From the IMG/VR virus record IMGVR_UViG_3300014205_000176: 64,000 nt of DNA, one strand, 5' to 3'. This document shows positions 11,005-43,168 of this stretch, piece after piece. The notes beneath the pieces are model-generated. The model saw nothing but the letters and a program-made list of their open reading frames with translations, was not told the origin of the DNA and did no database searches. Made by a program: the position numbers and the translations under genes. The stretch is from a virus. Lineage: Duplodnaviria > Heunggongvirae > Uroviricota > Caudoviricetes. How positions within the stretch are numbered: position 1 is the first letter of the stretch; each line of letters begins with the position of its first letter.

Positions 11005-11448
11005 CTAACATGACATTACCTTCCTTCCACTTCCACTCACCAACTTCTCTATCACAGAATCTTGTTCAACCAGCTTTGCCCGAGCTGCCTCTAATGCACG
11101 CCGAAATTGATTGTTCTGAAACTCAAGAACACCATTAACCTCATCAAGTTTAGCGTAAGCTTCTCGCGCCATATTCAACTTGCGAGCGAAATAACCCATT
11201 GTCGTTACATTATCTAGATTTGCATATCTAGCATTCAACAATAGCTCATTCTGATCCTCAAGTACCGCTATCCGCCGCCGCCCCGCCGGCTCCCACGCCT
11301 CCCACGCCTCCCCACGTGGTCCAAAATCATGACCCGCCGGCCGTATCACATGATCTACCCCAAGCCCCATCGCCTCCATCATCTCCCGTACCAGATTCTT
11401 AGGCTTAGACATAACTTCCCATCCCCCTTCTACCACCTTTCTCCCCAA
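11005..11448 (-). CDS. hypothetical coiled-coil protein
   Basis: ORF on the dominant strand; true start uncertain. Confidence 0.6.
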   Translation of the reverse strand: MGRKVVEGGWEVMSKPKNLVREMMEAMGLGVDHVIRPAGHDFGPRGEAWEAWEPAGRRRIAVLEDQNELLLNARYANLDNVTTMGYFARKLNMAREAYAKLDEVNGVLEFQNNQFRRALEAARAKLVEQDSVIEKLVSGSGRKVMSC

Positions 11449-11594
11449 ACTTGAAGCCCTTTCTGCTCTAAACTACATCTCCCCACTCAACACTGCCCAA
11501 CTTCCCGCCCAATCATCCTCCCTCCTAACTCCGCCCGCTTCTCCCTTATCATCTCCTCCATTCCTGCCGGCGGATGTACCCACCCCATCTTAAC

Positions 11595-11861
11595 CTACTC
11601 TTCATCACACTTCATCATCCTCAACATACCTACTCTCGTTGGCATCCTTATAAACTCCTCCAAATCCGCCCTGAAATCTTCCGGCGCATCTTCCATCATC
11701 TCCCGCAATGTCCCCTCATTACATACCACCGCTATCGACTCCGTCACAAATCTATACAACTCCTCTATCCCATACCCTGCTATCCGCGCCGTAATATACC
11801 TCACTCCCAATTCCCGGTTCAATGGATCCCCTGCGCCCAATAACTCTCCTATGTGTTTCAT
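11595..11861 (-). CDS. hypothetical protein
   Basis: 88 aa with ATG start. Confidence 0.6.
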   Translation of the reverse strand: MKHIGELLGAGDPLNRELGVRYITARIAGYGIEELYRFVTESIAVVCNEGTLREMMEDAPEDFRADLEEFIRMPTRVGMLRMMKCDEE

Positions 11862-12668
11862 CCAAATATCCCTTCTATAATTTCCCCAATGAATTCAACT
11901 ATTCCCTCTATTACTTCACCCACAATATCCACCAAACTCCACTCCCTCATCTCCCCATTCTATCACCTTACACCCCGATCCGTCAATGCTTACATCTAAC
12001 TACGCAATATCATTCACCTTTTCTCTCCTTTCCGAATTACCCCGGACGCACGGCATAACGTAGTTATTCTGGGACAACCATCTATTGTGAGATATGGTAT
12101 TGTTCAATTGACATCGCTCCTTTTACCAAAAAACCAAAGACCTAGACCAATTTCCTTCCCACCAAGCCCCACTTCATCCCATTTTACGACATTCAGCCCT
12201 CAAACATCAACACCAAACCAATCGCATCCAACCCAATAAATAATCTTCTTTGGTAAAAATAGGTAAGACAAAAACACCCACCATCATCAACATCTGCCTA
12301 TGATAACAACACAGGAGAATACAAGAACCCGAAGGTAATGATAACAACAGCAGCCAGAAGAAGAGAGGTGGTAGAAGAAGCATAGGGAGAAATAGCATAC
12401 AAGAAGATGGACCAGAGGAGAACCGCAGCCAGAAGACAACAGGGAGATTTGCCAGTAGTAAGATCTGCCAGATGTACCTTTTAGGGTGGCCCGGCCGGTC
12501 AGCCAGCCCGCTCACCCTATACCCCCTACAATCCATCCCGCCAGCCGCTTTCCCTATCTCCGATTCATCGACCGAAGATTCCGAGGGAAAAGTATTGGTG
12601 AGACGACGGTTCGACTGATTCACTTTCGTTCTGTTTCGTTTCATAATTTATGTTTTGGAGTTATCACC

Positions 12669-13124
12669 ATGACCAAGAAGAATACTGCTTCGAAGTTCGC
12701 CTCGTCAGTTGCCCCCACCCTGACCGCTTCCAAGCCGGCTCCGACCGCAGTTGTTGCTCCCGCTACCATCGGCAACATGACCCAAGCTGACCTCGTGGCG
12801 CTCATTGCCCAGACCGTTGCTGCTACCCTGGCTGCCTCGGCAACTCCAGCTAAGAAACCTGCTGCGGCCAAGAAGCCAGCGGTTGTTCCGGCCACCAAGC
12901 CTGCTCCGACCGCGAAGCCTGCTGATGGGCAGTCCAAGTCGGCCGCCTATATCGCACGCTGCAACGTTGACCCCAAGGTCGTCAAAGGGCACTTGGCAAA
13001 CGCGTACCGTGCAGGTCAAGCAGCGCAAGCTGGTGACCGCACTGCAATCGGCTCCGGTCGCTACAAGAACGCCTACAATGCAACCCTGATCAGCGCCGGC
13101 CTCCCAGCTTTCTACGCCGCATAA
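12669..13124 (+). CDS. Ala/Lys/Pro-rich basic protein
   Basis: ATG at 12669 after GGAG; PAKKPAAAKKPAVVPATKPAPTAKPA; strongly biased codons. Confidence 0.8.
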   Translation: MTKKNTASKFASSVAPTLTASKPAPTAVVAPATIGNMTQADLVALIAQTVAATLAASATPAKKPAAAKKPAVVPATKPAPTAKPADGQSKSAAYIARCNVDPKVVKGHLANAYRAGQAAQAGDRTAIGSGRYKNAYNATLISAGLPAFYAA

Positions 13125-13143: not shown

Positions 13144-13186
13144 AAGCCACCTGCCTTGTGAGCAGGTGGCTTTTGGCGTTTAAGAG
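13144..13186 (+). promoter_or_regulatory. hairpin + TGGCGTTTAAGAG cassette 1
   Basis: 11-bp stem (13144-13172) followed by the motif at 13174-13186. Confidence 0.7.
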
Positions 13187-13222
13187 GGCTTCACTCGCCT
13201 TTTCACACACAAGGAACACACC

Positions 13223-14368
13223 ATGAAACCTGCAATGACCGATGTTACTTTAGCTCTTATCGCCGAAACCGAAGAGAAGCCCGTCAAGGAGCTGGCTCCG
13301 TTCGCTACGGCACTCACAGTTTTCCGTGCGCGCGATACCGAAGGCAATCCAATTCCCCGCCGCTTCACCTGCACCGCCGAAGGTTATGACTTGCACGAGT
13401 ACAGTGCTACTGCCGGAACGCAATTCGCTGCTGAACGTGGGCTTCGCCGCCAGTTCGAGATGCTAGGCTGGTCGGTTGTTTGGACGGCCGTTCGTGATTA
13501 TACGAACGGCGAACCTGAGATTGAGTCTGTCGAGTCGGTCTTCGTTGCACCGCGCGAAGTTCCGAACTTGGAGCCAGGCAAGAACCTGCACACTCCGGCC
13601 ACCGACACTGACGAACCCGGTGAGCACGAAGCTCCGGAGCATGGGCTGACACACCGGCTCCCCAAACTTGACAACGGCCGAGTGACTCCGGTCTCCGACC
13701 CCGAGTGCTACAAGGCCATCTACTTCGCCGCGTTCACGCTTGCATCCAATGGGTTCGTAAGCCCGTTCACGCAGGATAAGGCACTTTACGATCTAGGCGA
13801 AAAGTCAGGCGTAGAGGGGCGTGGACGTACGCTCCGAAGGCACATTGCTCAGGTCATGGCATCCGGTGAAGCTGGCGTAAGCGTTGGCATCCCGGCCGTA
13901 GCGGTTGACCCTTGGGCACTGATTGACGGTCAGTCCGATGCACGCTGGATCCGAGTGTTGCATCTACCGGACCCTACAACCAAAGGCGCACGCAAAGGTG
14001 ACGGAGAACGCCGCGAAGCATTCTCAACCAACCTATCCGGATTGCCTGCTACCGAACGTGCACGCATGTGGCTGGAACGCCGCGAGGCGAATCGCTACGT
14101 AGGCACCAAGGGCCGGAACACTGTAGGAGCCAAAGCCGAACGTACTCAGATCCGGTTGCAATGCCACTTGGCTGCCAAAGCAGCCAAGGATATTGCGATA
14201 GCATCTGGTGAGGATGAGGGGACTGCCGACCTACAATACAAGTGGGTGTATGCAGCGACCGCCCGGAACCTCGGAGAATTGCACACAGTGTTCGAAACTC
14301 AACTAGCCGAACAAGGCGTAACCGAGCAGATGATTCTTGACTACGCAGCTGCGCAAAAAGCAGCATAA
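13223..14368 (+). CDS. hypothetical protein (381 aa)
   Basis: AAGGA RBS; long ORF with no recognised motif. Confidence 0.85.
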   Translation: MKPAMTDVTLALIAETEEKPVKELAPFATALTVFRARDTEGNPIPRRFTCTAEGYDLHEYSATAGTQFAAERGLRRQFEMLGWSVVWTAVRDYTNGEPEIESVESVFVAPREVPNLEPGKNLHTPATDTDEPGEHEAPEHGLTHRLPKLDNGRVTPVSDPECYKAIYFAAFTLASNGFVSPFTQDKALYDLGEKSGVEGRGRTLRRHIAQVMASGEAGVSVGIPAVAVDPWALIDGQSDARWIRVLHLPDPTTKGARKGDGERREAFSTNLSGLPATERARMWLERREANRYVGTKGRNTVGAKAERTQIRLQCHLAAKAAKDIAIASGEDEGTADLQYKWVYAATARNLGELHTVFETQLAEQGVTEQMILDYAAAQKAA

Positions 14369-14469
14369 GTAGGAGTCAACTATGGCAACCATTGAGAGTG
14401 TGAGCGTTCTCGGATGGATCGGTTTCGCAGTTTATTTGATATTTGCTACGCAGTAAAGGAATAGGTCAT

Positions 14470-14700
14470 ATGAAGCATAACGTATACACGGTATCAGAGG
14501 ATGGTCGGATCGTCATCGATGGCGTACCTCACACACTTGCTGAGGCGCGAGAGTTCAAGGATAAGATCCTAACTGAGGTCTGTGCGCTGGAGGTGCTCGC
14601 AGGCTCGCGTGGGTTTTCTCATTCAGACTTGCATGAGAAAACCCAGGAATCGCGAGGTCATGCCTTCACCGATTGGGTAAGACGATGCCTGCGTAGTTGA
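14470..14700 (+). CDS. hypothetical protein
   Basis: ATG at 14470 after AAGGA/AGGT. Confidence 0.65.
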   Translation: MKHNVYTVSEDGRIVIDGVPHTLAEAREFKDKILTEVCALEVLAGSRGFSHSDLHEKTQESRGHAFTDWVRRCLRS

Positions 14701-14735
14701 TAATACTAATTGCTTGTGTGTGAATCATGTGATGC

Positions 14736-14778
14736 AAAGCCCGGAACCGTAAGGTTCCGGGCTTTTGGCATTTAAGAA
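14736..14778 (+). promoter_or_regulatory. hairpin + TGGCATTTAAGAA cassette 2
   Basis: 13-bp stem with GTAA loop (14736-14765); motif at 14766-14778. Confidence 0.7.
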
Positions 14779-15053
14779 GTATGTAACATCACACCTCGGG
14801 AACAAAATATGAATATCCTCATCAGGCTACCTATTCAGGAATTGTAAATAGTTCCGGTGGGCCGAAGATAGGATATTCGGTTGGTGGGATGAGTACCCCC
14901 GGGGGTCGAAAGGAAAAGTTTTCGTTTTTGCCCAGAATATCCCAGGTACCTAGGTCCACCACCCCAAGCCTAATACCCCCTATCCACTACAGTAGGCGCA
15001 TGTAGGCAAACACACAATCTCCGCATAGTTCAGCAATATAGGAAGGACACACC

Positions 15054-15278
15054 ATGTCAATCATTCTATTCCCGTTCAAGTTGTTAGCGATGATCTTCGG
15101 CGGTTTGGGCAAGGGCATCGGACTGGTAGTTGCCGGTCTGGTAGCTGCAGTCATCGTCCGCTATGCCTTATGCGTGTATGCTTGGAACGCAGGCGACGCA
15201 CACATCACTGGCCCGGTTCTGTTCTGGTCAATGGTTGCGGCATTCGTGCTGACGCTGATTGCCGGGAACTCGAAGTAA
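15054..15278 (+). CDS. small membrane protein
   Basis: AAGGA RBS; hydrophobic helices. Confidence 0.75.
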   Translation: MSIILFPFKLLAMIFGGLGKGIGLVVAGLVAAVIVRYALCVYAWNAGDAHITGPVLFWSMVAAFVLTLIAGNSK

Positions 15279-15444
15279 CATGGTCCCGCAGCAAACAACA
15301 GCGGAAACGATTCGGGCGGAGATGCCTGAGTTGGGAGCGAACATGGCGCAGGCGTTAGCAATCCTGGCCAAGGTGAGTGTGGCTGTGCAGTTGCAAAAAT
15401 CTAAATCACTAGGAGACCCGAGAATTTGATCTCGGGTTCGAAAC

Positions 15445-16242
15445 ATGAAAAAGCCAATTGAATCAATCGTTCGCGGTACTATCGAGATCTCGTCCTTCCA
15501 ATTCAGCCTTGAGGTCACAGAGAATGTGGTGTGGTTGTCACGTACGATGCGCGGCGTCGTGTCCGGGCTACTCGGTGTGTCTACAGGTGACATTGACGTC
15601 GTGGTAATTGATGACTTCTTCGTTGGTCGGGGCCGATGGGTCCAGGTTTTGGAAGTTTCGAACAAGACTGGCAAGTTTGACGGCGCTCAACGTATTCGTC
15701 TGCTATTCCGTTTGCTCCCGGAGGAACAGGCGCGCGATTTGAGGCCTGTCACTATTGACGTATCGGCCGATGACACGGTTCCTTGCACGGTCACCGTGCG
15801 TGACAGATTTGCTGGGAAAGAGGTGCTCTGGCAGCAGTCCTTTGCTCGCTACTCGCACCGACTCACCGATCCGGTTCGTGCCGCGGATATCTTGACGTGG
15901 CACTGGACCAGATACTATCGCTTTCTCCCGTGGTGCGACGTTGAGGACTTGGCGCGTGACTTTGGGGCGGAGGCTGTTGGCCTTACCTTGAGCGAGGCCA
16001 ACCGATTCGCTTCGCGACAGCTCTATCAGAGGGCTCGTGATCAGGGATGGCATAAGTTGACTCTGCGTGAACAGTCTCGCTGGGGACTGAAGGGACAGTG
16101 GCATCGAGATGAAGATTATGTTGCCGCGCACGCAAAGGTTGGGGAACCAAACGGAGCATCAGAAGCCACAAATCGGGCCTCGCGTACCAACGGTAGGCTC
16201 GACGCCTACGAAGACCACCAAGGCCACTTTACCTTGAGTTAG
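15445..16242 (+). CDS. hypothetical protein (265 aa)
   Basis: Long ORF on the dominant strand. Confidence 0.75.
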   Translation: MKKPIESIVRGTIEISSFQFSLEVTENVVWLSRTMRGVVSGLLGVSTGDIDVVVIDDFFVGRGRWVQVLEVSNKTGKFDGAQRIRLLFRLLPEEQARDLRPVTIDVSADDTVPCTVTVRDRFAGKEVLWQQSFARYSHRLTDPVRAADILTWHWTRYYRFLPWCDVEDLARDFGAEAVGLTLSEANRFASRQLYQRARDQGWHKLTLREQSRWGLKGQWHRDEDYVAAHAKVGEPNGASEATNRASRTNGRLDAYEDHQGHFTLS

Positions 16243-16369
16243 TTCAATTCTCTCGACGAAAAAGGACAAGTAATTGAATTCTTTGGAAAATTCCAGGGTA
16301 CCTGGTTAGCAGACCCCAATCCTTAAAGGGCTTAGCGTAAGAAACATTAACACCAAGAGGGAGGTGCTC

Positions 16370-16573
16370 ATGTCAAACAAGGCACCAGATTCAGCCTGTG
16401 AGCATTGTGAGCGTGCCAGTGAACGATTGAGAAAGGCTGCGGAACTACTGGAAAAAACCGATGAGCTTAGATTGTCCGTGGCACGTATAAATGTCAGCTT
16501 GCCACCACCGAAGCGTACATCATCAGTTGTTCTGATTCGAGACGTAAATGGAGACTTGAGAGTCAAAGATTGA
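16370..16573 (+). CDS. hypothetical protein
   Basis: GGAGG RBS before ATG at 16370. Confidence 0.7.
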   Translation: MSNKAPDSACEHCERASERLRKAAELLEKTDELRLSVARINVSLPPPKRTSSVVLIRDVNGDLRVKD

Positions 16574-16611
16574 AACCTAGAGCCCTGAACTGAGAGTTTG
16601 GGGCTTTGGGC

Positions 16612-16657
16612 ATGCCTGCTTCCCGTAACAAGGAAGCAGGCATTTGGCATTTAAGAG
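16612..16657 (+). promoter_or_regulatory. hairpin + TGGCATTTAAGAG cassette 3
   Basis: 12-bp perfect stem (16612-16643); motif at 16645-16657. Confidence 0.7.
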
Positions 16658-16730
16658 AAGGATGAAGCCGAAATAATAAAACTTCTACCTTCTTTGATAA
16701 CATACCGCAAACATTGGAGATAACAACATC

Positions 16731-17243
16731 ATGTCAAAGCACAATCGTCCGGTTCTCACGCAGTCAGCAATCATCGACCTCAAGGGGCGAAAGGTTGGGA
16801 CAGAGGATCTTGAGCAAGCTGCTCTACTGCTGCAATGGGCGGAACAATCTGGCTACAAGGGCAGCGACCTGACTGTTGCAACGGCAGTGGCGGGAGGGCT
16901 TCGCGTTGCTGTTGAGATGGCAGAACGCGGCGAACATGAGAAGGCAGCTAAACAAGCAGGGAACTGTTTGTGGACGTTGAAAAAGAACCGCGAACTCTGC
17001 ACTAAGCAGAATCGTCGCAATCTTGGGAGAATTGATGTGGTGTGCCGCGATGATCGAACGAGAAAGCTCGGGAATATTGTGGAGTGGTTTGCTGGGGTAC
17101 ATTCACGCATTCACGATCAAATTGAAGCGGCGAAGGCTACCGAAGCCGAGGAGTTGGCGAATCTGGAGATGGAATCTTTGCAGTTCGCGGCGAGTGTTGC
17201 AACGGGTGTGGAGCTTCAGGAGAACAAGGTCAAGGCCGCCTAA
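16731..17243 (+). CDS. hypothetical protein
   Basis: GGAG RBS, 170 aa. Confidence 0.8.
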   Translation: MSKHNRPVLTQSAIIDLKGRKVGTEDLEQAALLLQWAEQSGYKGSDLTVATAVAGGLRVAVEMAERGEHEKAAKQAGNCLWTLKKNRELCTKQNRRNLGRIDVVCRDDRTRKLGNIVEWFAGVHSRIHDQIEAAKATEAEELANLEMESLQFAASVATGVELQENKVKAA

Positions 17244-17402
17244 TGGCCAAGTTCATCATCGACTTGGAGTCTGAGCCTAGTGAAAGCGGGTTTAGTAAGC
17301 TGATGAAGTTCGTATTCTGGATGTGCGTCATTGGGGCAGTGCTTCGGATATGTGCACATTAGCACTCGCACACTACTAGCAAACCAGGATAGCTCAAGCC
17401 CG

Positions 17403-17444
17403 GCTCGTTGCATTCAGTTGCAGCGAGCTATGGGCATTTAAGAA
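17403..17444 (+). promoter_or_regulatory. hairpin + GGGCATTTAAGAA cassette 4
   Basis: 10-bp stem (17403-17428); motif at 17432-17444. Confidence 0.65.
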
Positions 17445-17487
17445 GGGCACGGGAGCCCTAACAACAATTCGTGAAAGGTTTAGGATC

Positions 17488-17889
17488 ATGAACAAGTACA
17501 TTGCGATTTTGAGTATGGCGGTTGGAATTGGCGTGTTTGCGGGAGCAGTTACCATCGCAACGCCTAGTCCAGTGTTGAGACTGACCGAGGATAGCAAGCT
17601 AAGCGCCGAGTATGATGCACCGATTGCAAGCTTCCTGGGCAGTGTACCTAATAGCAAGGGCATGGCGCATCCGGTCCGCACAGCCAAACGTGTTGATAGT
17701 GCTAGCGTCTCGGCGCAGAGTTCTGATGAGCCAACATTCGGTCAGTTTTCAACACGCGAAGCGATGAATTATCAAACGGTGAGTCATCATTCTCGCACGC
17801 CAACGGTCCGCCAAGCAGTGCCAGTGAAGCGAGTAGTTCCAATTGTGCACGTGATAATTGGTGAGATCACATATGGAGCAGGGCTGTAA
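17488..17889 (+). CDS. putative secreted or membrane-anchored protein
   Basis: N-terminal hydrophobic signal-like segment. Confidence 0.7.
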   Translation: MNKYIAILSMAVGIGVFAGAVTIATPSPVLRLTEDSKLSAEYDAPIASFLGSVPNSKGMAHPVRTAKRVDSASVSAQSSDEPTFGQFSTREAMNYQTVSHHSRTPTVRQAVPVKRVVPIVHVIIGEITYGAGL

Positions 17890-18034
17890 CCATCTGGCCC
17901 CGGAAAGGAACTTCATTTCGTCGTGATCCGCCGCGACTGCCTACCGAGTTCGAAATAGCGGCAGTCTGGATGCTGGAGAGTATCTAATGATTGACAATCA
18001 ACTGACTACATGGTCTGTCAGGAGGTATAGATTC

Positions 18035-18355
18035 ATGCAATTTCCAACGATTCACAACAACGGTTCTGACCCTGCCAAGTTGATTGAAGAGTTTCTCGAT
18101 GCGTCCGAAGCGCTTCGCGAAGCAATCGACTTTCTAGAAGGTGGTTGCGGGCCACATGCTCGGGACTACTTCGACATGCAACCCACGGCAAACTTCGAGG
18201 CTGCGAGTGCAGAGCATACGGCACGGCTTCAAGCGCTCATCAAGGTTCGTGGGGAGTTGCTATCTCTTGCTGACAATGTGCAGGCTCAAGTAGATGAACG
18301 GGAAGCGGCTCGGTTGGTTCATCGGGCAGAGCTGAACACGGTAGTAGACAAGTAA
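18035..18355 (+). CDS. hypothetical protein
   Basis: AGGAGG RBS before ATG at 18035. Confidence 0.75.
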   Translation: MQFPTIHNNGSDPAKLIEEFLDASEALREAIDFLEGGCGPHARDYFDMQPTANFEAASAEHTARLQALIKVRGELLSLADNVQAQVDEREAARLVHRAELNTVVDK

Positions 18356-18367
18356 CAAGTGATTGCC

Positions 18368-18410
18368 AAGGCTCGTTCTCGAAAGGGAGCGGGCTTTCGG
18401 CATTTAAGAG
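18368..18410 (+). promoter_or_regulatory. hairpin + CGGCATTTAAGAG cassette 5
   Basis: 13-bp stem with several G-U pairs and a GAAA loop; motif at 18398-18410. Confidence 0.7.
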
Positions 18411-18444
18411 AAGGCAACATCGCCTCTCTAAGGAAAAGGTAACA

Positions 18445-18678
18445 ATGGCAAACGGCAACACGAAGATTCAAGAGCAAACTATCACGGTTGGCAATCGCCG
18501 GATGATCATCTCTGAGGAGGGCATCTGGGTAGATAGCCTGAATCCGAACGGTACGGTTGATAGTTCGGTAGCGGTTGCATGGGAAGAGTTGGCAACTCAC
18601 GAAGCTGACTCGTACATGAGCTTGTACGAGGTCATCCGGGGTGAAGACAATCTGCCGGCACTTCGCAAGGCAGGGTGA
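18445..18678 (+). CDS. hypothetical protein
   Basis: AAGG RBS, 77 aa. Confidence 0.75.
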   Translation: MANGNTKIQEQTITVGNRRMIISEEGIWVDSLNPNGTVDSSVAVAWEELATHEADSYMSLYEVIRGEDNLPALRKAG

Positions 18679-18679
18679 A

Positions 18680-18976
18680 GTGAAGTTCAAGTTAGATGGT
18701 GGGGAGAAGTATCCTTACTACTTTCTTGTGGATAGGAAACGCGCCACTGAGTACGGTTGAGAAAAGGAAACCTGTAGGGAGCTGACCCAAGCTGAGAAGG
18801 ACGCAATCTTCGATAGGGAAGCAACTGAGTTCACTGATGCTGAGGTAGCAATTGTGAACTTATACAATGCTGCTTGCAATGAGTTTGATGCTCTTATCAA
18901 GCGGAAGCAGGCGGAGAACAGGGAGAAGCATGGAACGTCTTTATGTAGAGATTGCTCGCACGGTGCGGGCATATGA
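18680..18976 (+). pseudogene. hypothetical gene with in-frame TGA
   Basis: GTG at 18680; VKFKLDGGEKYPYYFLVDRKRATEYG*EKETCRELTQ...; TGA at 18758-18760 and the frame stays open afterwards. Confidence 0.5.
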
Positions 18977-19313
18977 GAACTGTTGCAATTCACCTGGGCA
19001 TGAAGAGTGGAAACTCAAACATGCCCAGAGCCTCGGCGAACTCGTACATGAACACATGCCCAGCGGTTCAGGTGTGGACAATGGGACGAGTTTGAATCTT
19101 GAGAAGAGCAATGGTGAGAGGCTAGTGTTTGAGACTAGTTATCATCATATGAACGAAGGCGGAGTGTATGATGGTTGGACTGAGCATACGGTGGTGGTGA
19201 CGGCATCGCTTATGTTTGGTGTGAACATACGGATCACGGGGCGCAACCGGAACGACATCAAGGAATACCTTCACAGTCTTTTTCAGGAGGCGTTGTTGAA
19301 GGAAGTGGAGTAG
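18930..19313 (+). CDS. conserved phage hypothetical protein
   Basis: MPSGSGVDNGT...SYHHMNEGGVYDGWTEHTVVVTASL...GRNRNDIKEYL. Confidence 0.8.
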   Translation: MERLYVEIARTVRAYENCCNSPGHEEWKLKHAQSLGELVHEHMPSGSGVDNGTSLNLEKSNGERLVFETSYHHMNEGGVYDGWTEHTVVVTASLMFGVNIRITGRNRNDIKEYLHSLFQEALLKEVE

Positions 19314-19338
19314 GTGGTTGTTACCAAAGGAGGAAGTT

Positions 19339-19590
19339 ATGAATTTGATATTTGCGATTCTTTTCATGGCTTTCTCCGTTGGGGCGGCCGAAGAATCATC
19401 AATACTTTACTCGGCGCTACCCAAGGATGGTTGTGCTGAGGGGCGAAAGCGGTGTGAAGGGATCTGCCATCGCTGCATAGCTGAGGGGCGGAGACCTGAT
19501 GGTTGTTACGGGGGAGTGGTATTCAACATCTGTTGCGATGGCAATGGAGGACGCACGGACGGGAGTTCGTGTGAATGTAGGGCAAAATGA
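19339..19590 (+). CDS. Cys-rich secreted protein
   Basis: Signal peptide plus about 9 Cys; AAGGAGG RBS. Confidence 0.75.
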   Translation: MNLIFAILFMAFSVGAAEESSILYSALPKDGCAEGRKRCEGICHRCIAEGRRPDGCYGGVVFNICCDGNGGRTDGSSCECRAK

Positions 19591-19781
19591 AAGAATTAGG
19601 AACTGACCCATTGTGTTTGCTTGAGCATGACGAGTTTGCCTACGAGGCGTTGCCTGAGTGCTACAAGAATGATCATTCTCTCAAGTTCTTCTTGGATGTG
19701 AATGGTAACTTATGTGCGGAACATACTCTTTATCCCGAGGAATACTTGTGGGTGAATGGGGAGTGGTCGAGGATCAAATGA
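19587..19781 (+). CDS. hypothetical protein
   Basis: ATGA overlap with the upstream gene. Confidence 0.7.
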   Translation: MKELGTDPLCLLEHDEFAYEALPECYKNDHSLKFFLDVNGNLCAEHTLYPEEYLWVNGEWSRIK

Positions 19782-20017
19782 AAGTCCAAGTTGACAACAA
19801 GGTAGTAACGATGGTTCTTGTATCTCGGGAGGCACATCAATCGAACAAGATTGTGTATCACGAGTTGAACGAGCATGGGCAACCGATGACAGAACATTCG
19901 TTTTCGAGGGACTTCTTACAAGGTGATGGATCGTTCTGGGTGAATGGCCATCACTACAGAACGGGCAACATGGTAGGTGTGGAGTGTGAGATGACGGAGT
20001 GTGATTGTTGCTCTTAA
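19778..20017 (+). CDS. hypothetical protein
   Basis: ATGA overlap with the upstream gene. Confidence 0.65.
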   Translation: MKVQVDNKVVTMVLVSREAHQSNKIVYHELNEHGQPMTEHSFSRDFLQGDGSFWVNGHHYRTGNMVGVECEMTECDCCS

Positions 20018-20059
20018 AGTTTGGAGAGTGTAAACCTGAATTGAGAAAGAGGCAGACCA

Positions 20060-20404
20060 ATGTCTGTTGATCTACCCACCACCGAACATGCTACGGCGCA
20101 AGAGTTGGCAGTTTGGTGCAGTGATGTGCAATTGGCCCGAGCGATTACTTACTTAGAGTTAGTTCACTTAAAGCAGATCCAACCAGGGCCGGAGATTGAG
20201 AAGCTGCTTGGTGAAGATTCATTACTTACTTGGAATGAATGGGAAGTAGATGCAGTGCAGCGCCGGATATCGTTGGCGTTGTATATAAAGAGGACCTTGA
20301 AGGTTGATCGTCGCAAGGCGAGCTACCCGATAACTCGAATCATTCACAATTGTGTTGAGTGTCATCGAGGCGAGGTACTGAGTTCCTACAACACACGAAG
20401 GTAA
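20060..20404 (+). CDS. hypothetical protein
   Basis: AAAGAGG RBS. Confidence 0.7.
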   Translation: MSVDLPTTEHATAQELAVWCSDVQLARAITYLELVHLKQIQPGPEIEKLLGEDSLLTWNEWEVDAVQRRISLALYIKRTLKVDRRKASYPITRIIHNCVECHRGEVLSSYNTRR

Positions 20405-20407
20405 CTG

Positions 20408-20680
20408 ATGGACAAGCCAAGTGTAGTTCGTATTATTAGAATTGCCAGGGCCGAAGCTAGGAGTGCTTTCAAACTATCAAAGCATCATGATGGGGCCTTG
20501 GCAGCCAACAGCTCGAACGATGCTTATACAGCAGCAGAAAAGTTAGTACTGGATGGGTCTCTCGGGTGGAAATCCGAGGCTCTTAAACAGCTCCAACATA
20601 CTGCCAAGCTAGAATACTTAGTATTAGGCAGCAATAGCAATGCGGCAAAAGCAATAGCCGCACTGGAGGGACTGGAGTAA
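20408..20680 (+). CDS. hypothetical protein
   Basis: Packed ORF. Confidence 0.7.
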   Translation: MDKPSVVRIIRIARAEARSAFKLSKHHDGALAANSSNDAYTAAEKLVLDGSLGWKSEALKQLQHTAKLEYLVLGSNSNAAKAIAALEGLE

Positions 20681-20682
20681 CA

Positions 20683-21300
20683 ATGGCAAAGACATCAACG
20701 GCAAATAATATTTCCATACCAGCTCCGAGAATTCATCCGGAGTTAGTTCAGGAAGCCAAGAAGCGGGAAGTCAAGAAGAACACCAAGGCTCGGCCGGCGC
20801 AGCAACGTAGCGACCGACAACCTTCGGTTGTTAAAAAGCCAACGGCCAAAGCTGCACCGAAAGCAGCCGCACCCAAGAGCAAGCGTGTGCAGTTGTTATC
20901 AATCAAGGATGCAAGTTCCGTGATTGACCAGATACGGATAGCATTCTCGGTCTCGGCGATTGGTTCGCTAGTGGGCATCGTGTTAGGGGCATCAATACCG
21001 CTGACAACGTTCATGATAGCACACCATGAAGTCAAGGAGTTCTGGTCATTCTACACGGCATTGGTAGCCGGCGGTCTGATTTTTTCAGCAAACAGTGTGT
21101 TCTTCTGGACCAAGGCAGCATTCAGAAGTTCTGTCAAAGCTCTAGGATTCGTTGTTCTAATTGAAGGGGCAATGATCTTGAGCAAGATTGAGTGGCTTGG
21201 ATATCTTGGGTTGGGAATTCTAATTGCTATCAATGCGGTAGCGAGTGGAGCCAACCTGGTCATCAAGCCGGCAGTTCCGAAGAAGCCGAGCTGGATATAG
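20683..21300 (+). CDS. membrane protein with a basic Lys/Ala-rich N-terminus
   Basis: KKPTAKAAPKAAAPKSK followed by about four TM helices. Confidence 0.8.
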   Translation: MAKTSTANNISIPAPRIHPELVQEAKKREVKKNTKARPAQQRSDRQPSVVKKPTAKAAPKAAAPKSKRVQLLSIKDASSVIDQIRIAFSVSAIGSLVGIVLGASIPLTTFMIAHHEVKEFWSFYTALVAGGLIFSANSVFFWTKAAFRSSVKALGFVVLIEGAMILSKIEWLGYLGLGILIAINAVASGANLVIKPAVPKKPSWI

Positions 21301-21512
21301 CCGAAACCGCTTTTGGGTCGTTACTTACAGAACAAGGAAACTGAAATGTCAAAAAATATCAAAACACAGTTTGATTTGTACAAGGCTGCTGATAATAAGG
21401 TTCAGGAATGCCGAGCGGCTCTTGAGGCATCGATGCGGGAGCGTTCGGTTATAGTGGAGCAGATTGTTAGTGAGTTGAACAGAATCCAGAAACGGCTGGA
21501 AGGAGAAGGACG

Positions 21513-21755
21513 ATGAATGTAACGAAGGTATCTAGTACATTATATATTGCTCACGTGGAAGTACACGTACCGAATCAAGATAGTGAGGCGGGTTGGGTAC
21601 TTGATCGATTTGAGGGCGAGCCATGCCCGAGCGGGTTTGACTCCTGGGAACAATTGAAGGCTCGGTTATTGGAAGCTGGTTTTGAATATGACCCCAGCTT
21701 AGTGAAGCTGACTCGGTATGATCTAGGCACCACGAAATATCTATTCTTGATTTAA
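21513..21755 (+). CDS. hypothetical protein
   Basis: AAGGA RBS, 80 aa. Confidence 0.7.
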   Translation: MNVTKVSSTLYIAHVEVHVPNQDSEAGWVLDRFEGEPCPSGFDSWEQLKARLLEAGFEYDPSLVKLTRYDLGTTKYLFLI

Positions 21756-21882
21756 ACGCCACGGACCAACCAACCCGTTTCGAAGTCACCTTGCAAATGA
21801 TTAGCCTGTCTTCGAGGTACTCAGGCCGGTCTCTTTCCCCAGTTCCGAAACCCAACGGAATAGCCGACCTAATTCAACAGCC

Positions 21883-21911
21883 TTGACAGATAGTGGAAGG
21901 TTTAGTATTGT
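21883..21911 (+). promoter_or_regulatory. sigma70-type promoter
   Basis: TTGACA-17 bp-TATTGT. Confidence 0.7.
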
Positions 21912-21916
21912 GCATG

Positions 21917-22195
21917 AGACTTGCCATCGGTTCACCACCTACCGAGGCAATGCAGTGTGGAAACGTAGTTTCCCCTGCGTATGCAGTTGAGCGAGCCCAA
22001 TCCCCCTTGGGTTAGCTTGGTGCCGGTCTGCAAAGGTAGCATAGCTGACTGCGCCGCTGAGAAGCGGCAGAAGCGGCGAGAGCTGCTGAATCAAAACCGG
22101 CAATTTTTCAGATGGCCCGCTAGACAATTGATGGGCCGTATTTTCCTGGGTCGGCCGGACGTTTTAGATGGAGCCGGAGACCCAGGTCTCTTTTT
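21917..22195 (+). ncRNA. candidate structured ncRNA or long structured leader, family unknown
   Basis: Consecutive stems, a multibranch closed by TGCCGGT/ACCGGCA with two GAGA-tetraloop hairpins, and a final stem with a T-rich tail; starts just after the promoter. Confidence 0.55.
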
Positions 22196-22235
22196 ACCCA
22201 AAACCCAGGCCTATCACCCGGCCGGAAAGAAGAGT

Positions 22236-22589
22236 ATGAACCGCTGGCATTTAGACGATAAGTTCTGGAAGGTTGGCAAGATCGTAGTGATCATCGATTC
22301 CAAGGGCAACGGAGAGGCAGTTCTGACTACTATCACGAAGATAGGTCAGAAGTATGTCACGGCTCTTAGCAAGCGATTCTATGTCATGGGGTCCTGCATA
22401 CCAAGGCAGATAGGTTCGGCCAAGTTAGAGAACCCATTAGTTCTCTACACCATGGAGCAGATTAGCGAGTTAGTGTACATGCCTCAAGTTCAATCAGCTT
22501 TGTTGAAACTTATGATGGGTGCTCAACTCCTTCAAATTGGAGATGTTCTAGGAATTGAACGACCACAGCATTTGCGGAAAGTTAGGTAA
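22236..22589 (+). CDS. hypothetical protein
   Basis: Likely ATG at 22236; the longer ORF from 21981 has no credible start. Confidence 0.65.
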   Translation: MNRWHLDDKFWKVGKIVVIIDSKGNGEAVLTTITKIGQKYVTALSKRFYVMGSCIPRQIGSAKLENPLVLYTMEQISELVYMPQVQSALLKLMMGAQLLQIGDVLGIERPQHLRKVR

Positions 22590-22591
22590 CC

Positions 22592-23386
22592 ATGGCAGAC
22601 TATAAAGACAACGACCCCAAGGGATGCGGAGACCTCTCGGGAGGAGCTGCGTTGGGCCGCTCCACGATTCAAGGCGAGCTAGGTAAAGGCGAAACGCTAA
22701 CGGTAGTCCGCAAGCAATTGGAAGGTGACTACGATGAGAACGGGACATACTTCGGTGGTGGGTCTGGTACGCAGCCGTTGTTCTGGGTCTCTTCGGAGGA
22801 CGGTGGTATTGACTACATGATCCGAGCGAAGGACATTGGCGATGCACGAGCACAGGTTGCTGCCAAATATCCTGGAGCCAAGATTGCTGGAGATTCATAC
22901 AACGTGAGTCTCGATCTGGACACTCTGCAACAATTTCTCGACTGCGAAGTTGAGAGTTTGGAATGCGACCCGAACGTAGTTGCCACAGTGAACGATGAGA
23001 TAAAGACCGCTGCAGAGGAATTCGAGACGGCGATATGGCGCACACTAGAAACCTGGGTGAGTGCCAATCTCGGGTTGCTTGATCTTGACGGATTCGAGCC
23101 GGACGCAGACGGGTTGGTTACCGGGTCGATTGTGCGGGAGATGTCAATTCTCAGCGGTGGTGCTGGATACCTGTACTACCAAGAGCATGAGGGTGCGGGT
23201 GTAGGAACATGGGATGGTGATTGGGATCATCTTTTCAAGGACCATCGTGTTACGCTCCGGGCGTTATCTGAAGTGGTGAAGAACGCAACGCATGCTGAGT
23301 ATCACAAGCTCAAGACGGCGTTGGAAAATTGTGCGTTTTCGAGCGTACCTGAAGAAGAGGATGACGAAGATGAAGACGAAGACTGA
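22592..23386 (+). CDS. acidic hypothetical protein (264 aa)
   Basis: Long ORF with an acidic tail. Confidence 0.8.
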   Translation: MADYKDNDPKGCGDLSGGAALGRSTIQGELGKGETLTVVRKQLEGDYDENGTYFGGGSGTQPLFWVSSEDGGIDYMIRAKDIGDARAQVAAKYPGAKIAGDSYNVSLDLDTLQQFLDCEVESLECDPNVVATVNDEIKTAAEEFETAIWRTLETWVSANLGLLDLDGFEPDADGLVTGSIVREMSILSGGAGYLYYQEHEGAGVGTWDGDWDHLFKDHRVTLRALSEVVKNATHAEYHKLKTALENCAFSSVPEEEDDEDEDED

Positions 23387-23633
23387 TGAAAGCAAGTTGT
23401 TCAACATTCTCGACGGCAAGGACGAGAATGTATTAGGGGGTTCGGTACCCCTTGATAATTGTTACATCTCGCAATACGGTGCAATCCAAGCAGGTGAGAA
23501 ATTGCCGAAGGATTTGGAAGTTGGCGAATCAACCCGAGCCGAATACAACATGGGTGGTGGTAGCAAGCCCCAAGCTACGGCACGCTCGCGAAAGTCAAAG
23601 CGACACATCTACCGCATCGTGAGGGTAGCATGA
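23370..23633 (+). CDS. hypothetical protein
   Basis: Packed ORF; start uncertain. Confidence 0.6.
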   Translation: MKTKTDESKLFNILDGKDENVLGGSVPLDNCYISQYGAIQAGEKLPKDLEVGESTRAEYNMGGGSKPQATARSRKSKRHIYRIVRVA

Positions 23634-23944
23634 TAACGCACGAGACTCCGGCAGAAGCACTGGACTCGATGATGAGCATGACCCGTACATTGGGTGCAGC
23701 TCAGTGGCGTCAGCTTGGCGAGGATGCTTCCAACGATGGTGCGGCTTGGTTAGGTTGCATTGACAGGGCGATTGAAGCGGTGAAGGTCAAAGACATAGCT
23801 AACGCAGAAGATAATTTGTGGTTGGCTCACGAGATTGAATCGAATTGGAAAACTTTCAACGAGGTAGCTCTGAGAATCATTCGGGTATTGGAGCAGCTCC
23901 ATAGCCCTGAGTCTTTAGAGAACTACCTTCTGAACGGAGTTTGA
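23630..23944 (+). CDS. hypothetical protein
   Basis: ATGA overlap with the upstream gene. Confidence 0.7.
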   Translation: MITHETPAEALDSMMSMTRTLGAAQWRQLGEDASNDGAAWLGCIDRAIEAVKVKDIANAEDNLWLAHEIESNWKTFNEVALRIIRVLEQLHSPESLENYLLNGV

Positions 23945-23945
23945 T

Positions 23946-24341
23946 ATGTCAAGACATGGAATGTTACTTGCGAACGTCAAGAACATGAAGTCCTTTTTCG
24001 AGGATTACATGGCGCATGACGGTGATTGGGATGTCAAGAGTTTGAAGGCACTTGACCAAACCTTCCGGGCCACAACGAGTGCAATCTCGATGCGTCCGGT
24101 ACGTGCAGCGATGGAGCTTGCAGACAAGACCATGCACGGTCACGGAGTCGAAGAGATTGTCGGCTTCAAGAACTCGTCGAAGGAGATGACGACGGTTGCT
24201 CATTACGTGAACATGGGTGACACGTACGCATCGACAATCATCTATGATTGCCTAGCTGACAAGTTCTATGTTGGAACGTACGGCGATTGGTTGGAGTGGC
24301 GGGAAGGGAACGAAGACTATGGACTCGGCGAGAATGACTAA
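23946..24341 (+). CDS. conserved phage hypothetical protein
   Basis: HGHGVEEI...YVNMGDTYASTIIYD...FYVGTYGDWLE. Confidence 0.75.
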   Translation: MSRHGMLLANVKNMKSFFEDYMAHDGDWDVKSLKALDQTFRATTSAISMRPVRAAMELADKTMHGHGVEEIVGFKNSSKEMTTVAHYVNMGDTYASTIIYDCLADKFYVGTYGDWLEWREGNEDYGLGEND

Positions 24342-24885
24342 TCCCAAGCCGGAGGATATTCTCTGGGAGGGGGTAGCGGACAGTAGGTTATCTCGGATAG
24401 TACGGCATGGCAGCAGAGGTTGTTATGCCGAGGTATTCGAGGATAATTCGGTAGATAGTGGGTATCGGGCAGCGATTGGTGAGATGGAAGATAGCGCTGT
24501 GTATCAGGTCGCTTTCTTAGACATGAAGAAAAAACTTGATGAGATACTTGAGTTACGGGCCAGTATTAATACCAAGGCGCTGGCACGAGGGCGAGTCTCA
24601 GAACTGGCACAGTACGGGCCTTATGGTGGAAAGGGCATTCGGAGACGACGGGAATTTGAGGGCTATATTGCAAATCACTTGCCAAAAGAATATCGGTATG
24701 GTCAGATGTATCTAGCTGAGGTTCCTGGAGGATCTCATCGAGCACTTGTAGAAACCAGAGTGTACTTAGCGAATCTGGCAGCGGACGAGCTTAGAGCGCT
24801 TCTTCCAAAAGAGGCTCTTGATAACATACCGGATGTGTTCTTAGGTGACATTCCAAGAATTCAGGATATTGGAAAGAAAGGATGA
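24334..24885 (+). CDS. hypothetical protein
   Basis: ATG at 24334. Confidence 0.7.
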   Translation: MTNPKPEDILWEGVADSRLSRIVRHGSRGCYAEVFEDNSVDSGYRAAIGEMEDSAVYQVAFLDMKKKLDEILELRASINTKALARGRVSELAQYGPYGGKGIRRRREFEGYIANHLPKEYRYGQMYLAEVPGGSHRALVETRVYLANLAADELRALLPKEALDNIPDVFLGDIPRIQDIGKKG

Positions 24886-24894
24886 TGTAGTAAC

Positions 24895-25210
24895 ATGGCA
24901 CAAGGCAGAATATCACCACCCGAGATGTGGACAGCACGGTATTTCACGAGCTGGTTCATTCCACGGGGCACAGCATGTGAGTTTTGCAAGCCATGCGTAC
25001 TCGCAAGAGGAATTGGTAGCTGAGTTTGGAGCTGCGATGCTCTGTGGGAAGGCAGGGATTGCAACGAAGACAATCGAGAACTCGGCGGCGTATATCAAAT
25101 TATGGGAAAGGAAATTGACTCCTGAGATGTTGATTTTTGGAAGCCGGGAAGCGCGGAAGGCATTTGACTACGTGATAGACAAGGCTGCTGAGGAAGAAGT
25201 TGCAGCATAG
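24895..25210 (+). pseudogene. ArdC-like zincin metallopeptidase relic
   Basis: STVFHELVHSTGH (HExxH) lies in one frame and YSQEELVAEFGAAMLC...ENSAAYIKLW in another; the N-terminal ssDNA-binding domain is absent. Confidence 0.7.
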
Positions 25211-25218
25211 GAGGATCA

Positions 25219-25413
25219 ATGAAGGTAATAATTGGGATTCAATGTGACAATTCGGCATTTGAAGACAACATGGTAGGCGAGGTTCAGCGCATTCTCAGAG
25301 CAGCTGGCGCAATATTCGCTGAGTTAGTAGAGGGTGACGAAGCGGCTAAACATAATCTTCGCGATTGCAATGGGAACAATGTTGGTGTCATTGACGTTGA
25401 TTTTGAAGGATGA
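25219..25413 (+). CDS. hypothetical protein
   Basis: GGAGG RBS; DNSAFED...EVQRILR...LRDCNGNNVG. Confidence 0.75.
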   Translation: MKVIIGIQCDNSAFEDNMVGEVQRILRAAGAIFAELVEGDEAAKHNLRDCNGNNVGVIDVDFEG

Positions 25414-26105
25414 CGATGCTGAGAGCAAAGACGGTGGGTGATTGGTTCTTTGACAGGGATGGGCGGTTATCGTTCCGAGGTGTATTTGTGATAGCGGTGG
25501 TAGAGATCAGCGTGTTAGCGAGCTGGGTTATCTGGAGCGTATGAAGACGGGGGCTCTTTCGGGAGCCCTTGTTTTTACCAAAGAAAGAAGTTTTGTCTTG
25601 GGATTCCAAACGAAGTTGATATGGACACTGGGGTTGAGTGGTCATGTCACATCGAGATTGGCGAGAAGATTGAGGAACTACGGTTGGAGCTTTGCAAGCA
25701 GCTGTATACGGACCTTGAAGCTGATTACTATTCGAGCATCAGTGATGAAGAGTGTTTGAATTATCTTCGTGCTCGTCGGTTCGTGATACGAGACGGATTG
25801 GAAAAGCTCATAACGGATCAAGTTCCCTGCGAAGGAGTACAGGTCATATGAAACGGGTACAGGAGTGGTGCCAACAGCATGGGCATCAGCAGTTCTACTT
25901 GACCGAAGGTGGCCTAACGTCTACGCTGTGAAAAGTGCAACGAGACGTTCAACGGTCGGTTCACGGTTGGTGAGTTGTTGATAATTGCAGCGGCTCACAA
26001 GGCGTGTGAATGGGATTACTACCCAGACCAATGGACGGAGCAGCAGATTGCCGAAGCTATCATGCACGGCACGGTTCCTGAGTGAGAAGAGAAGTAAAGC
26101 TGATG

Positions 26106-26145
26106 GGGGTTGCTCGAAAGGGCAGCCCCTTTTGGCGGTTAAGAG
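26106..26145 (+). promoter_or_regulatory. hairpin + TGGCGGTTAAGAG cassette 6
   Basis: 10-bp stem with GAAA loop (26106-26129); motif at 26133-26145. Confidence 0.65.
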
Positions 26146-26190
26146 ACTCGCAAAGGCGAGCATAACAATTTCGAAAGGTTGGATAACACC

Positions 26191-42837: not shown

Positions 42838-42880
42838 GAGACACCCTTCCAGTCACGCTCCTCCGACTCAGGTTGGTGAG

Positions 42881-42911
42881 AAGGGCTGCGGAAACGCAGC
42901 CCTTTTCTTTT
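42881..42911 (+). terminator. intrinsic terminator
   Basis: AAGGGCTGCG-GAAA-CGCAGCCCTT followed by TTCTTTT. Confidence 0.85.
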
Positions 42912-43168
42912 GTCTTGACAGTTTGGAAAATGCAGCCAAGGCTGTTTCGATAGAGGAATGTATGAGAGGAATGTATGAGAGAGAAGCAAGAACTTACCGT
43001 AACGCCCGTACCAGTCGAAAGCACGCTAGTAATTTGGGAGGAGAATCCAGAAAGAATTCGGTTTTCCCTCATAGGGGCCCTGTTATTTGATGGGGTTTTG
43101 ATTACTCGGGTTTGTCAAACTGGATTTTTATTGTAACAATTTACCAACGCACTCAGAAAGATTCTCAC

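Follow-up and report, generated by a model that had tools for sequence, protein, structure and literature searches.

Composite terminator/promoter cassettes known as PeSLs (promoter-early stem-loops) have been described in T4-type phages (Arbiol et al. 2010, PMC2839356; Comeau et al. 2014, PMC4122927). The promoters of the virion RNA polymerase (vRNAP) of phage N4 consist of a hairpin with a 5- to 7-bp stem and a 3-nucleotide (nt) loop, which is centred at −11 and formed on the template DNA strand (PMC4496689). Almost nothing has been known so far about expression timing in uncultured giant phages. In this study, we analysed a repeated hairpin–motif unit in a 64,000-nt stretch of DNA, hereafter the window, from a virus of the Caudoviricetes (IMG/VR record IMGVR_UViG_3300014205_000176). 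The window belongs to the genome of a very large uncultured phage and encodes Ku, WGR-PARP, an intein-bearing SNF2 helicase and an FtsK-like ATPase; its genes run leftward up to ~12.6 kb and rightward beyond. A first-pass annotation had pointed out six such units in the early-gene arm and had offered several readings of them. On balance, we favour the view that each unit is an intrinsic terminator overlapping a phage-specific promoter of neither the sigma70 nor the sigma54 type, where termination, promoter function, start site and timing are all deduced from the sequence.

Copies and extent of the motif

The pattern GGCRKTTAAGA was found six times in the window, always on the + strand (13175, 14767, 16646, 17433, 18399 and 26134), whereas shuffled sequences contained it 0.12 times on average and twice at most. 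The six copies reported in the first-pass annotation were thus confirmed, its coordinates being one base too low. All copies are intergenic and oriented toward the next gene. When two mismatches were allowed, 29 matches were obtained versus 18 expected, which means that the additions were at background level. At five sites a start codon follows 37–75 nt past the motif; at 14767 the next conserved gene is ~280 nt away.

Alignment on the motif of 26 units from the window and four relatives demonstrated that conservation extends beyond the 11 nt noted before, to a block of ~21 nt reaching from −8 to +12 nt around the first G and composed of GGGC, TTT(T), GGCATTTAAGA and RG. Further upstream, hairpin composition aside, and downstream as far as the start codon, the position matrix was flat. 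The block is contiguous and asymmetric and holds ~30 bits, an upper bound since the instances were chosen by the core pattern. The number of A residues before the G of the motif varies from 2 to 4 among relatives. A literature search on the motif string returned only unrelated primer sequences; neither the motif nor the clade turned up.

The motif had been described as neither a sigma70 nor a sigma54 consensus, and both comparisons bore this out. Sigma70 promoters have TTGACA and TATAAT-like hexamers, of which the −10 hexamer carries A as its second and T as its sixth base. A sigma70 scan remained at background (17 found versus 16 expected), no hexamer within the motif carried both of these key −10 bases, and no conserved partner element was present; a sigma70 promoter was rejected for want of a −35/−10 pair. 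Sigma54 promoters have GG at −24 and GC at −12, ten bases apart (TGGCAC-N5-TTGC). TTGGCA in the unit matches the −24 element, but columns +11 to +13 are A/G, G/A and mixed, so that GC at −12 is not conserved and a sigma54 promoter was also rejected.

Structure of the hairpin

A hairpin ends 0–4 nt 5′ of the motif in all six units and in ~45 units of relatives. The window hairpins have stems of 10–14 bp, slightly longer at the upper end than the 10–13 bp first given, with free energies of −19 to −25 kcal/mol and z scores of −2.9 to −5.7 against shuffles. Their loops are 3–8 nt long and are of the GNRA type at three sites (GTAA at 14767; GAAA at 18399 and 26134), and the number of G.U pairs per stem is 0–4 in the window, with a mean of 2.3 over the units of the window and its relatives. 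The first-pass annotation had suggested selection on RNA structure from these loops and pairs. Covariation of the stems was strong. On a model-fitted alignment of 54 units, 96.8% of the cells in the stem were paired versus 68.8% in shuffled controls, and double-sided changes occurred at all ten pairs (10/10); since the alignment was fitted to the structure, these values are somewhat favourable to it. The signal collapsed when the stem partners were slid against each other.

Folding of the 40 nt 5′ of the motif, which is independent of the covariance-fitted alignment, gave means of −20.3 kcal/mol for the sense and −14.7 kcal/mol for the antisense strand, the sense strand folding better in 46 of 49 units (p = 6e-9). 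This asymmetry indicates that the hairpin is transcribed in the sense direction, as an RNA hairpin of the upstream gene's transcript. These observations fit an RNA structure and not a DNA cruciform or an N4-type template-strand hairpin. The N4-like, hairpin-assisted promoter proposed earlier was rejected because stem and loop size, position and distance, G.U pairs and the antisense fold do not fit. T occupies each of three positions 3′ of the stem in 22–25 of 26 units, as in intrinsic terminators, and judging from these features the hairpin is most likely an intrinsic terminator.

A second small hairpin had been said to follow immediately in most copies. Such a hairpin, beginning 1–5 nt past the G of AAGA, stands out clearly at 17433, 18399 and 26134; at 13175 it is weak, and at 14767 and 16646 it is poor. 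In the window's clade, small stems begin at this distance in most units. The three clear ones, all on the + strand, lie after motif 4 (17444–17459; AGGGC-ACGGGA-GCCCT; −8.7 kcal/mol, z −2.2; kept in relatives L002 and L005), after motif 5 (18408–18428; including GAGA of the motif; −9.2 kcal/mol, z −2.6) and after motif 6 (26147–26160; CTCGC-AAAG-GCGAG; −7.2 kcal/mol, z −1.6). Those after motifs 4 and 5 are possibly the 5′-terminal stems of the downstream transcripts.

Conservation in related phages

The most conserved gene of the arm encodes a protein of 381 amino acids (13223–14368), homologs of which were found in metagenomes at 90 to 38% identity; the metagenome scan yielded five loci. The main relative, a 391,957-bp IMG/VR contig rated 91% complete (the 392-kb relative), was searched in full. 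The unit is kept in relatives at 90, 80, 52, 49 and ~40% protein identity with the hairpin sequences replaced, and it was traced down to ~38% identity, so that conservation in related phages is established. In all the relatives' contigs it is repeated on the gene strand, and the stems at orthologous sites are entirely different.

A covariance model of hairpin and motif matched exactly six sites in the window and eight in the 392-kb relative; the latter share one strand and fall within 114.1–132.3 kb, with none elsewhere. It gave no match in 34 unrelated viral IMG/VR contigs carrying an exact 16-mer, which are chance matches without the hairpin. These restricted matches identify the unit as a clade-specific signal in one small-gene block beside the divergence point. 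The array is indeed confined to one 13- to 18-kb block of orphan genes next to the divergence of the arms.

Comparison of gene order at seven loci revealed a partly conserved backbone on which the cassettes bracket one to three orphan genes. The gene content between cassettes differs: some genes of one relative are missing from another or lie elsewhere in it. Empty tandem cassettes also exist. Besides, hairpins at different cassettes can be identical or nearly so: 13246–13288 and 14299–14341 in L005 and 9516–9558 in L002 share ctcgcttcctcg(c/t)aagggaagcgggc, which suggests copying or gene conversion between cassettes. Variable gene content, empty tandem units and the near-identical hairpins at two L005 sites (13276 and 14329) could also be expected if the units were DNA-level recombination sites, attC-like elements that move gene cassettes without a primary role in expression. 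We consider this extremely unlikely, since the motif is not part of the stem and the flat matrix shows no conserved complement to it on the upstream side, in contrast to the paired core sites of attC, and the sense-specific G.U pairs indicate RNA. Neither the proteins scanned nor the surroundings of the array showed an integrase, and the single deletion junction that was inspected did not run from motif to motif. An integron attC site was rejected in particular, there being no pairing core and inverse-core sites and no integrase among those proteins.

In L018, the most distant relative, the motif has the form GGCATTTAAAGG and stands at a fixed distance of 9 nt before ATG, where its purine end forms AAGGAG, a ribosome-binding site. 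This layout places the 3′ end of the motif in the mRNA and thus the start of transcription inside or upstream of the motif. It would also suit a translational operator or enhancer, that is, a motif on the mRNA bound by a RegA-like phage repressor or by the ribosome and controlling early genes, since the motif of L018 supplies the Shine-Dalgarno sequence. In a language-model search the clusters nearest to the 381-amino-acid protein were of the T4 RegA type, at a score of 0.76, which is below the meaningful level. In the window and the closer relatives, however, the motif is 37–75 nt or more from the start, each gene has a ribosome-binding site of its own, and four of the six sites lack a start codon after the purine run of the motif. 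A translational role of this kind is, in our view, very unlikely.

Proposed function of the unit and points against it

Based on these features, we propose that the unit serves as a composite boundary of transcription. Its GC-rich hairpin and T run would form the 3′ end of the upstream message, acting as intrinsic terminator and as 3′-end protection. The T run, GGCATTTAA and then GARG would constitute a compact promoter, specific to the phage, at which transcription starts anew and covers the following one to three small genes. The T run would be common to the terminator and promoter functions, and this double service would account for the fixed spacing between hairpin and motif. Transcription would start inside the motif or at its 3′ edge, probably at the G of AAGA, and the new message would often open with a small protective stem or, in the most distant relatives, with a Shine-Dalgarno sequence. 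As the motif is confined to the one block of orphan genes, it would define one temporal class of genes. The terminator fused to a phage-specific promoter, one of the possibilities listed in the first-pass annotation, is the best-supported reading, and the units are most likely a non-sigma70 version of terminator–promoter cassettes.

Between the hairpin and the start codon the motif is the sole conserved element, and 6–10 hairpins stand in series; if these terminate, the motif is the only candidate for a restart signal. Serial terminators need either restart or read-through, and the latter would be provided if the box after each hairpin were a boxA/nut-like RNA site that loads the host Nus complex or a phage factor; one upstream promoter would then serve the whole arm in a regulated manner. 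The order is indeed that of boxB and boxA in ribosomal RNA (rRNA) leaders, where a conserved box also comes after a hairpin whose sequence is free. The boxA consensus is UGCUCUUUAACAA, and UGGCAUUUAAGAR matches it at 9 of 13 positions in our own alignment. The shared positions are, however, mostly low-complexity UUUAA, and the GCUC of boxA is absent. Known systems have one or two sites per operon, placed before terminators, whereas here 6–10 come directly after them. Antitermination is decidedly unlikely on these grounds.

Several observations weigh against the terminator–promoter reading. Cassette 4 and its orthologs have a degenerate T run (ATG, TTG and TCG) but nonetheless retain the hairpin, which possibly has a role beyond termination. 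In relative L007, a DUF723 gene is inserted on the − strand of the rightward arm (11835–12563), and the rightward gene that follows has no cassette. In the 91%-complete relative, no T7-like RNA polymerase (PF00940) was found at E ≤ 1, as compared to 1e-109 for the phage T7 control, and no match to the Rpb1 and Rpb2 domains of multisubunit polymerases (PF00623 and PF00562) was obtained. The large open reading frames of this relative gave structural or replication proteins or nothing when compared with Pfam, PHROGs and PDB sequences. The sole sigma factor found there resembles the extracytoplasmic function (ECF) type, with regions 2 and 4, and is encoded far from the array. ECF-like sigma factors normally read two separated elements, unlike the single contiguous block seen here. 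Finally, the core of the motif is predicted to be single-stranded and AU-rich between two stems, the classic layout of an endoribonuclease site.

Another reading, also listed in the first-pass annotation as an RNA-processing site, is that the long RNAs of the arm are cut by a sequence-specific endoribonuclease, either an RNase E-like enzyme of the host or one encoded by the phage, in the single-stranded GGCAUUUAA between the stems; the upstream message would thereby gain a protective 3′ hairpin and the downstream message a 5′ stem. It would agree with hairpins that act at the RNA level and are sense-specific, and with retention of the hairpin at cassette 4, where the T run is lost. RNase E has a loose preference for RN|WUU, which GC|AUU fits. 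The 381-amino-acid protein after cassette 1 is a weak lead in this direction. This protein has no Pfam or PHROG family and no homolog in GenBank phages, and its AlphaFold model has a predicted local distance difference test (pLDDT) score of 65 with a confident beta-beta-beta-alpha-beta N-terminal domain. A fold search gave no significant match, the best being RNase H-like and double-stranded RNA-binding domains, and the weak, non-significant RNase H-like matches fall in the N-terminal domain.

On the other hand, strict conservation over 11–21 nt far exceeds the need of RNase E, the strong conservation of the T run is left unexplained, and the fold matches of the 381-amino-acid protein have E > 0.02 on a model of pLDDT 65. 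An RNase III site was rejected as the stems are too short and fully paired. Rfam searches detected no ribozyme at E ≤ 10 in 11–28 kb and nothing at the gathering score in the 64 kb. No hammerhead core with arms matching the motif was present in the window or the 392-kb relative, in scans limited to hammerhead geometry. No complementary guide RNA was found either, and a duplex between the conserved upstream block and the motif was at the level of shuffled sequences. The target of a trans-acting or split ribozyme was dismissed, with no ribozyme family, matching arms or complementary RNA found. Processing is the main rival explanation, which we regard as unlikely, if less so than antitermination.

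For the terminator–promoter unit, the reader may be either a phage polymerase that escaped recognition or the RNA polymerase of the host together with a phage factor. A more speculative proposal, to which we give little confidence, is that the 21-nt block is the promoter of a machine missed by current profiles, either a divergent phage RNA polymerase or a new specificity factor for the host polymerase. A divergent polymerase could be delivered by the virion and hidden among orphan structural proteins of 1,400–2,300 amino acids; orphans of this size in the relative have 1,423, 1,691, 1,708 and 2,265 amino acids. With either reader, if the proposal is true, this clade of giant phages would have a private early-gene programme. 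A 21-bp DNA or RNA oligonucleotide could serve as bait for the motif-reading factor in a genome without a recognisable RNA polymerase, and a new polymerase or factor would bring with it a short orthogonal promoter useful as a tool. The compact conserved signal also offers a handle for annotating a temporal gene class in metagenomic giant phages.

Individual cassettes

All cassettes are on the + strand, and scores refer to the covariance model. Cassette 1 (13144–13187; 40.0 bits) comes after the first + strand gene, which stops at 13124, and before the conserved 381-amino-acid gene (ATG at 13223); it consists of a hairpin (13146–13170), TTTT (13171–13174), GGCGTTTAAGA (13175–13185) and GG. Cassette 2 (14737–14779; 58.2 bits) has a hairpin with a GTAA loop (14739–14762), TTTT and the motif as GGCATTTAAGA (14767–14777). 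The ~280 nt past it (14778–15053) contain no conserved open reading frame. The same position is non-coding in relatives (L007 at 11183, L012 at 4022, L013 at 588 and 1804, and L009 at 11221–11689), often with a stem that has an TTTTTACCAAAGA motif in its loop. Possibly, cassette 2 drives the transcription of a small RNA from this region.

Cassette 3 (16612–16658; 38.8 bits), with a hairpin at 16612–16643 and the motif at 16646–16656, precedes a 170-amino-acid gene (ATG at 16731). It is directly abutted by a hairpin at 16582–16604 followed by TTTGGGCAT; this stretch (16582–16611), also on the + strand and absent from the first-pass annotation, is a degenerate seventh unit that has become fused to cassette 3. 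L005 has both of these hairpins as well, but they are separated by ~200 nt that hold an intact motif and a small gene.

Cassette 4 (17401–17445; 29.6 bits), which lacks a T run, comprises a hairpin (17402–17429), the spacer ATG and the motif (17433–17443), and lies 5′ of a 133-amino-acid gene (ATG at 17488). Cassette 5 (18369–18411; 53.8 bits) has a hairpin with a GAAA loop and four G.U pairs (18371–18394), TTTC and the motif (18399–18409); it is followed by a 77-amino-acid gene (ATG at 18445) and then by a tightly packed gene run of ~7.6 kb without a cassette. Cassette 6 (26104–26146; 46.5 bits), with a GAAA-loop hairpin (26106–26129), TTTT and GGCGGTTAAGA (26134–26144), stands 5′ of a 390-amino-acid gene (ATG at 26191). 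The genes between cassettes had no assigned family in Pfam and PHROGs scans. A DNA search with 13–27 kb of the window gave no match among GenBank phages and plasmids, and an exact 41-mer from the window was not found in IMG/VR.

Other elements of the window and its relative

The switch of gene direction coincides with a minimum of the cumulative GC skew at ~12–14 kb. To its left, 11400–12450 is C- and A-rich on the + strand with short open reading frames on the − strand, the GC skew being −0.45 in 10–12 kb. A non-coding block of ~170 nt (12462–12625) located 5′ of the first rightward gene is better conserved than the adjacent proteins. It occurs at the same position in L002, L005, L007, L009 and L016 and is still recognisable at 40% protein identity. 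Since RNAalifold detected almost no covariation in it (1 of 35 pairs), the block seems to be an element that works at the DNA level; it may be a promoter, a regulatory region or an origin located where the arms diverge.

No other 10-mer is nearly as over-represented as T(T/A)ACCAAAG(A/G), which usually follows TTT and has 13 copies in the window and 52 in the 392-kb relative (L055–L074). Window copies include those at 25575, 38730 and 19321 on the + strand and at 12256, 10820, 8644, 7409 and 3123 on the − strand. The form TTACCAAAGA occurs 41 times in the relative versus less than one expected. Both strands carry copies, most of which point the same way as the genes. In ~10 cases they stand 8–11 nt before ATG and overlap the ribosome-binding site; most copies are away from starts (35% near them versus 29% for the background). 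At 25548–25585 this sequence follows 3′ of a terminator-like hairpin, as the cassette motif does. At 42878–42925, TTGACA comes directly after a strong terminator hairpin of −24 kcal/mol whose T run is long, so junctions of a terminator and a start signal with other motifs exist elsewhere in this phage. The relative has, at ~91.9–92.6 kb (L069–L070), a CRISPR-like array of ~15 repeats with a 73-nt period; the repeat, in which CGCTCCTGAGAAGGAGCG occurs, has no relation to the cassette motif.

Comparison with known systems

The hairpin part of the unit resembles intrinsic terminators in its GC-rich stem of 10–14 bp, stable tetraloops, T run, location shortly past stop codons and sense-specific folding. 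It differs from them in that the T run is only three or four long before GGC and is followed by eleven more conserved bases, which no terminator needs. The boxB–boxA arrangement of rRNA leaders and phage lambda likewise has a hairpin of free sequence before a conserved U-rich box with UUUAA, but the GCUC core is absent here, and neither the copy number nor the placement after terminator-like hairpins is suited to it. With N4 vRNAP promoters the unit shares a hairpin of partly free sequence beside conserved bases 5′ of early genes. Its stems of 10–14 bp and loops of 3–8 nt, however, exceed those of N4, the hairpin lies ~13 nt or more upstream of the plausible start, the G.U pairs are on the sense strand with the antisense fold weaker in 46 of 49 units, and no giant polymerase gene was recognised.

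The motif part is comparable to the promoters of T7, T3 and SP6 (−17 to +6) in length, contiguity, asymmetry and high information content. T7-type promoters are contiguous blocks of ~23 bp that span the start; the block here is 21 nt long, with a predicted start. Both have an AT-rich stretch before a purine-rich start (TTTAA|GARG as compared to TATA|GGGAGA or TATA|GAAGAG), and the transcripts here would open with a small stem, as in T7-type phages. Unlike in those phages, no T7-like polymerase gene was detectable in the near-complete relative, and two to four A residues precede the G.

The PeSLs of T4-type phages share with the unit a stem-loop directly 5′ of a promoter, repetition before small orphan genes in a plastic region, and gene content that varies between units among relatives, with indels at the units when close relatives are compared, to which empty tandem units and a fused remnant are added here (cf. 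PMC4122927). The PeSL-like shuffling suggested by the first-pass annotation therefore stands as an analogy and not as membership. The promoter part here is one contiguous block of ~17–21 nt without −35/−10 elements, whereas PeSLs carry a sigma70-like early promoter with ~17 nt between −35 and −10; the T run is shared with the hairpin, which fixes the spacing; and the array is gathered in one 13- to 18-kb block of an uncultured phage of ~400–460 kb. If the proposed reading is correct, these units would be a second, independent example, outside the T4-type phages, of terminator–promoter units at sites of small-gene gain and loss.

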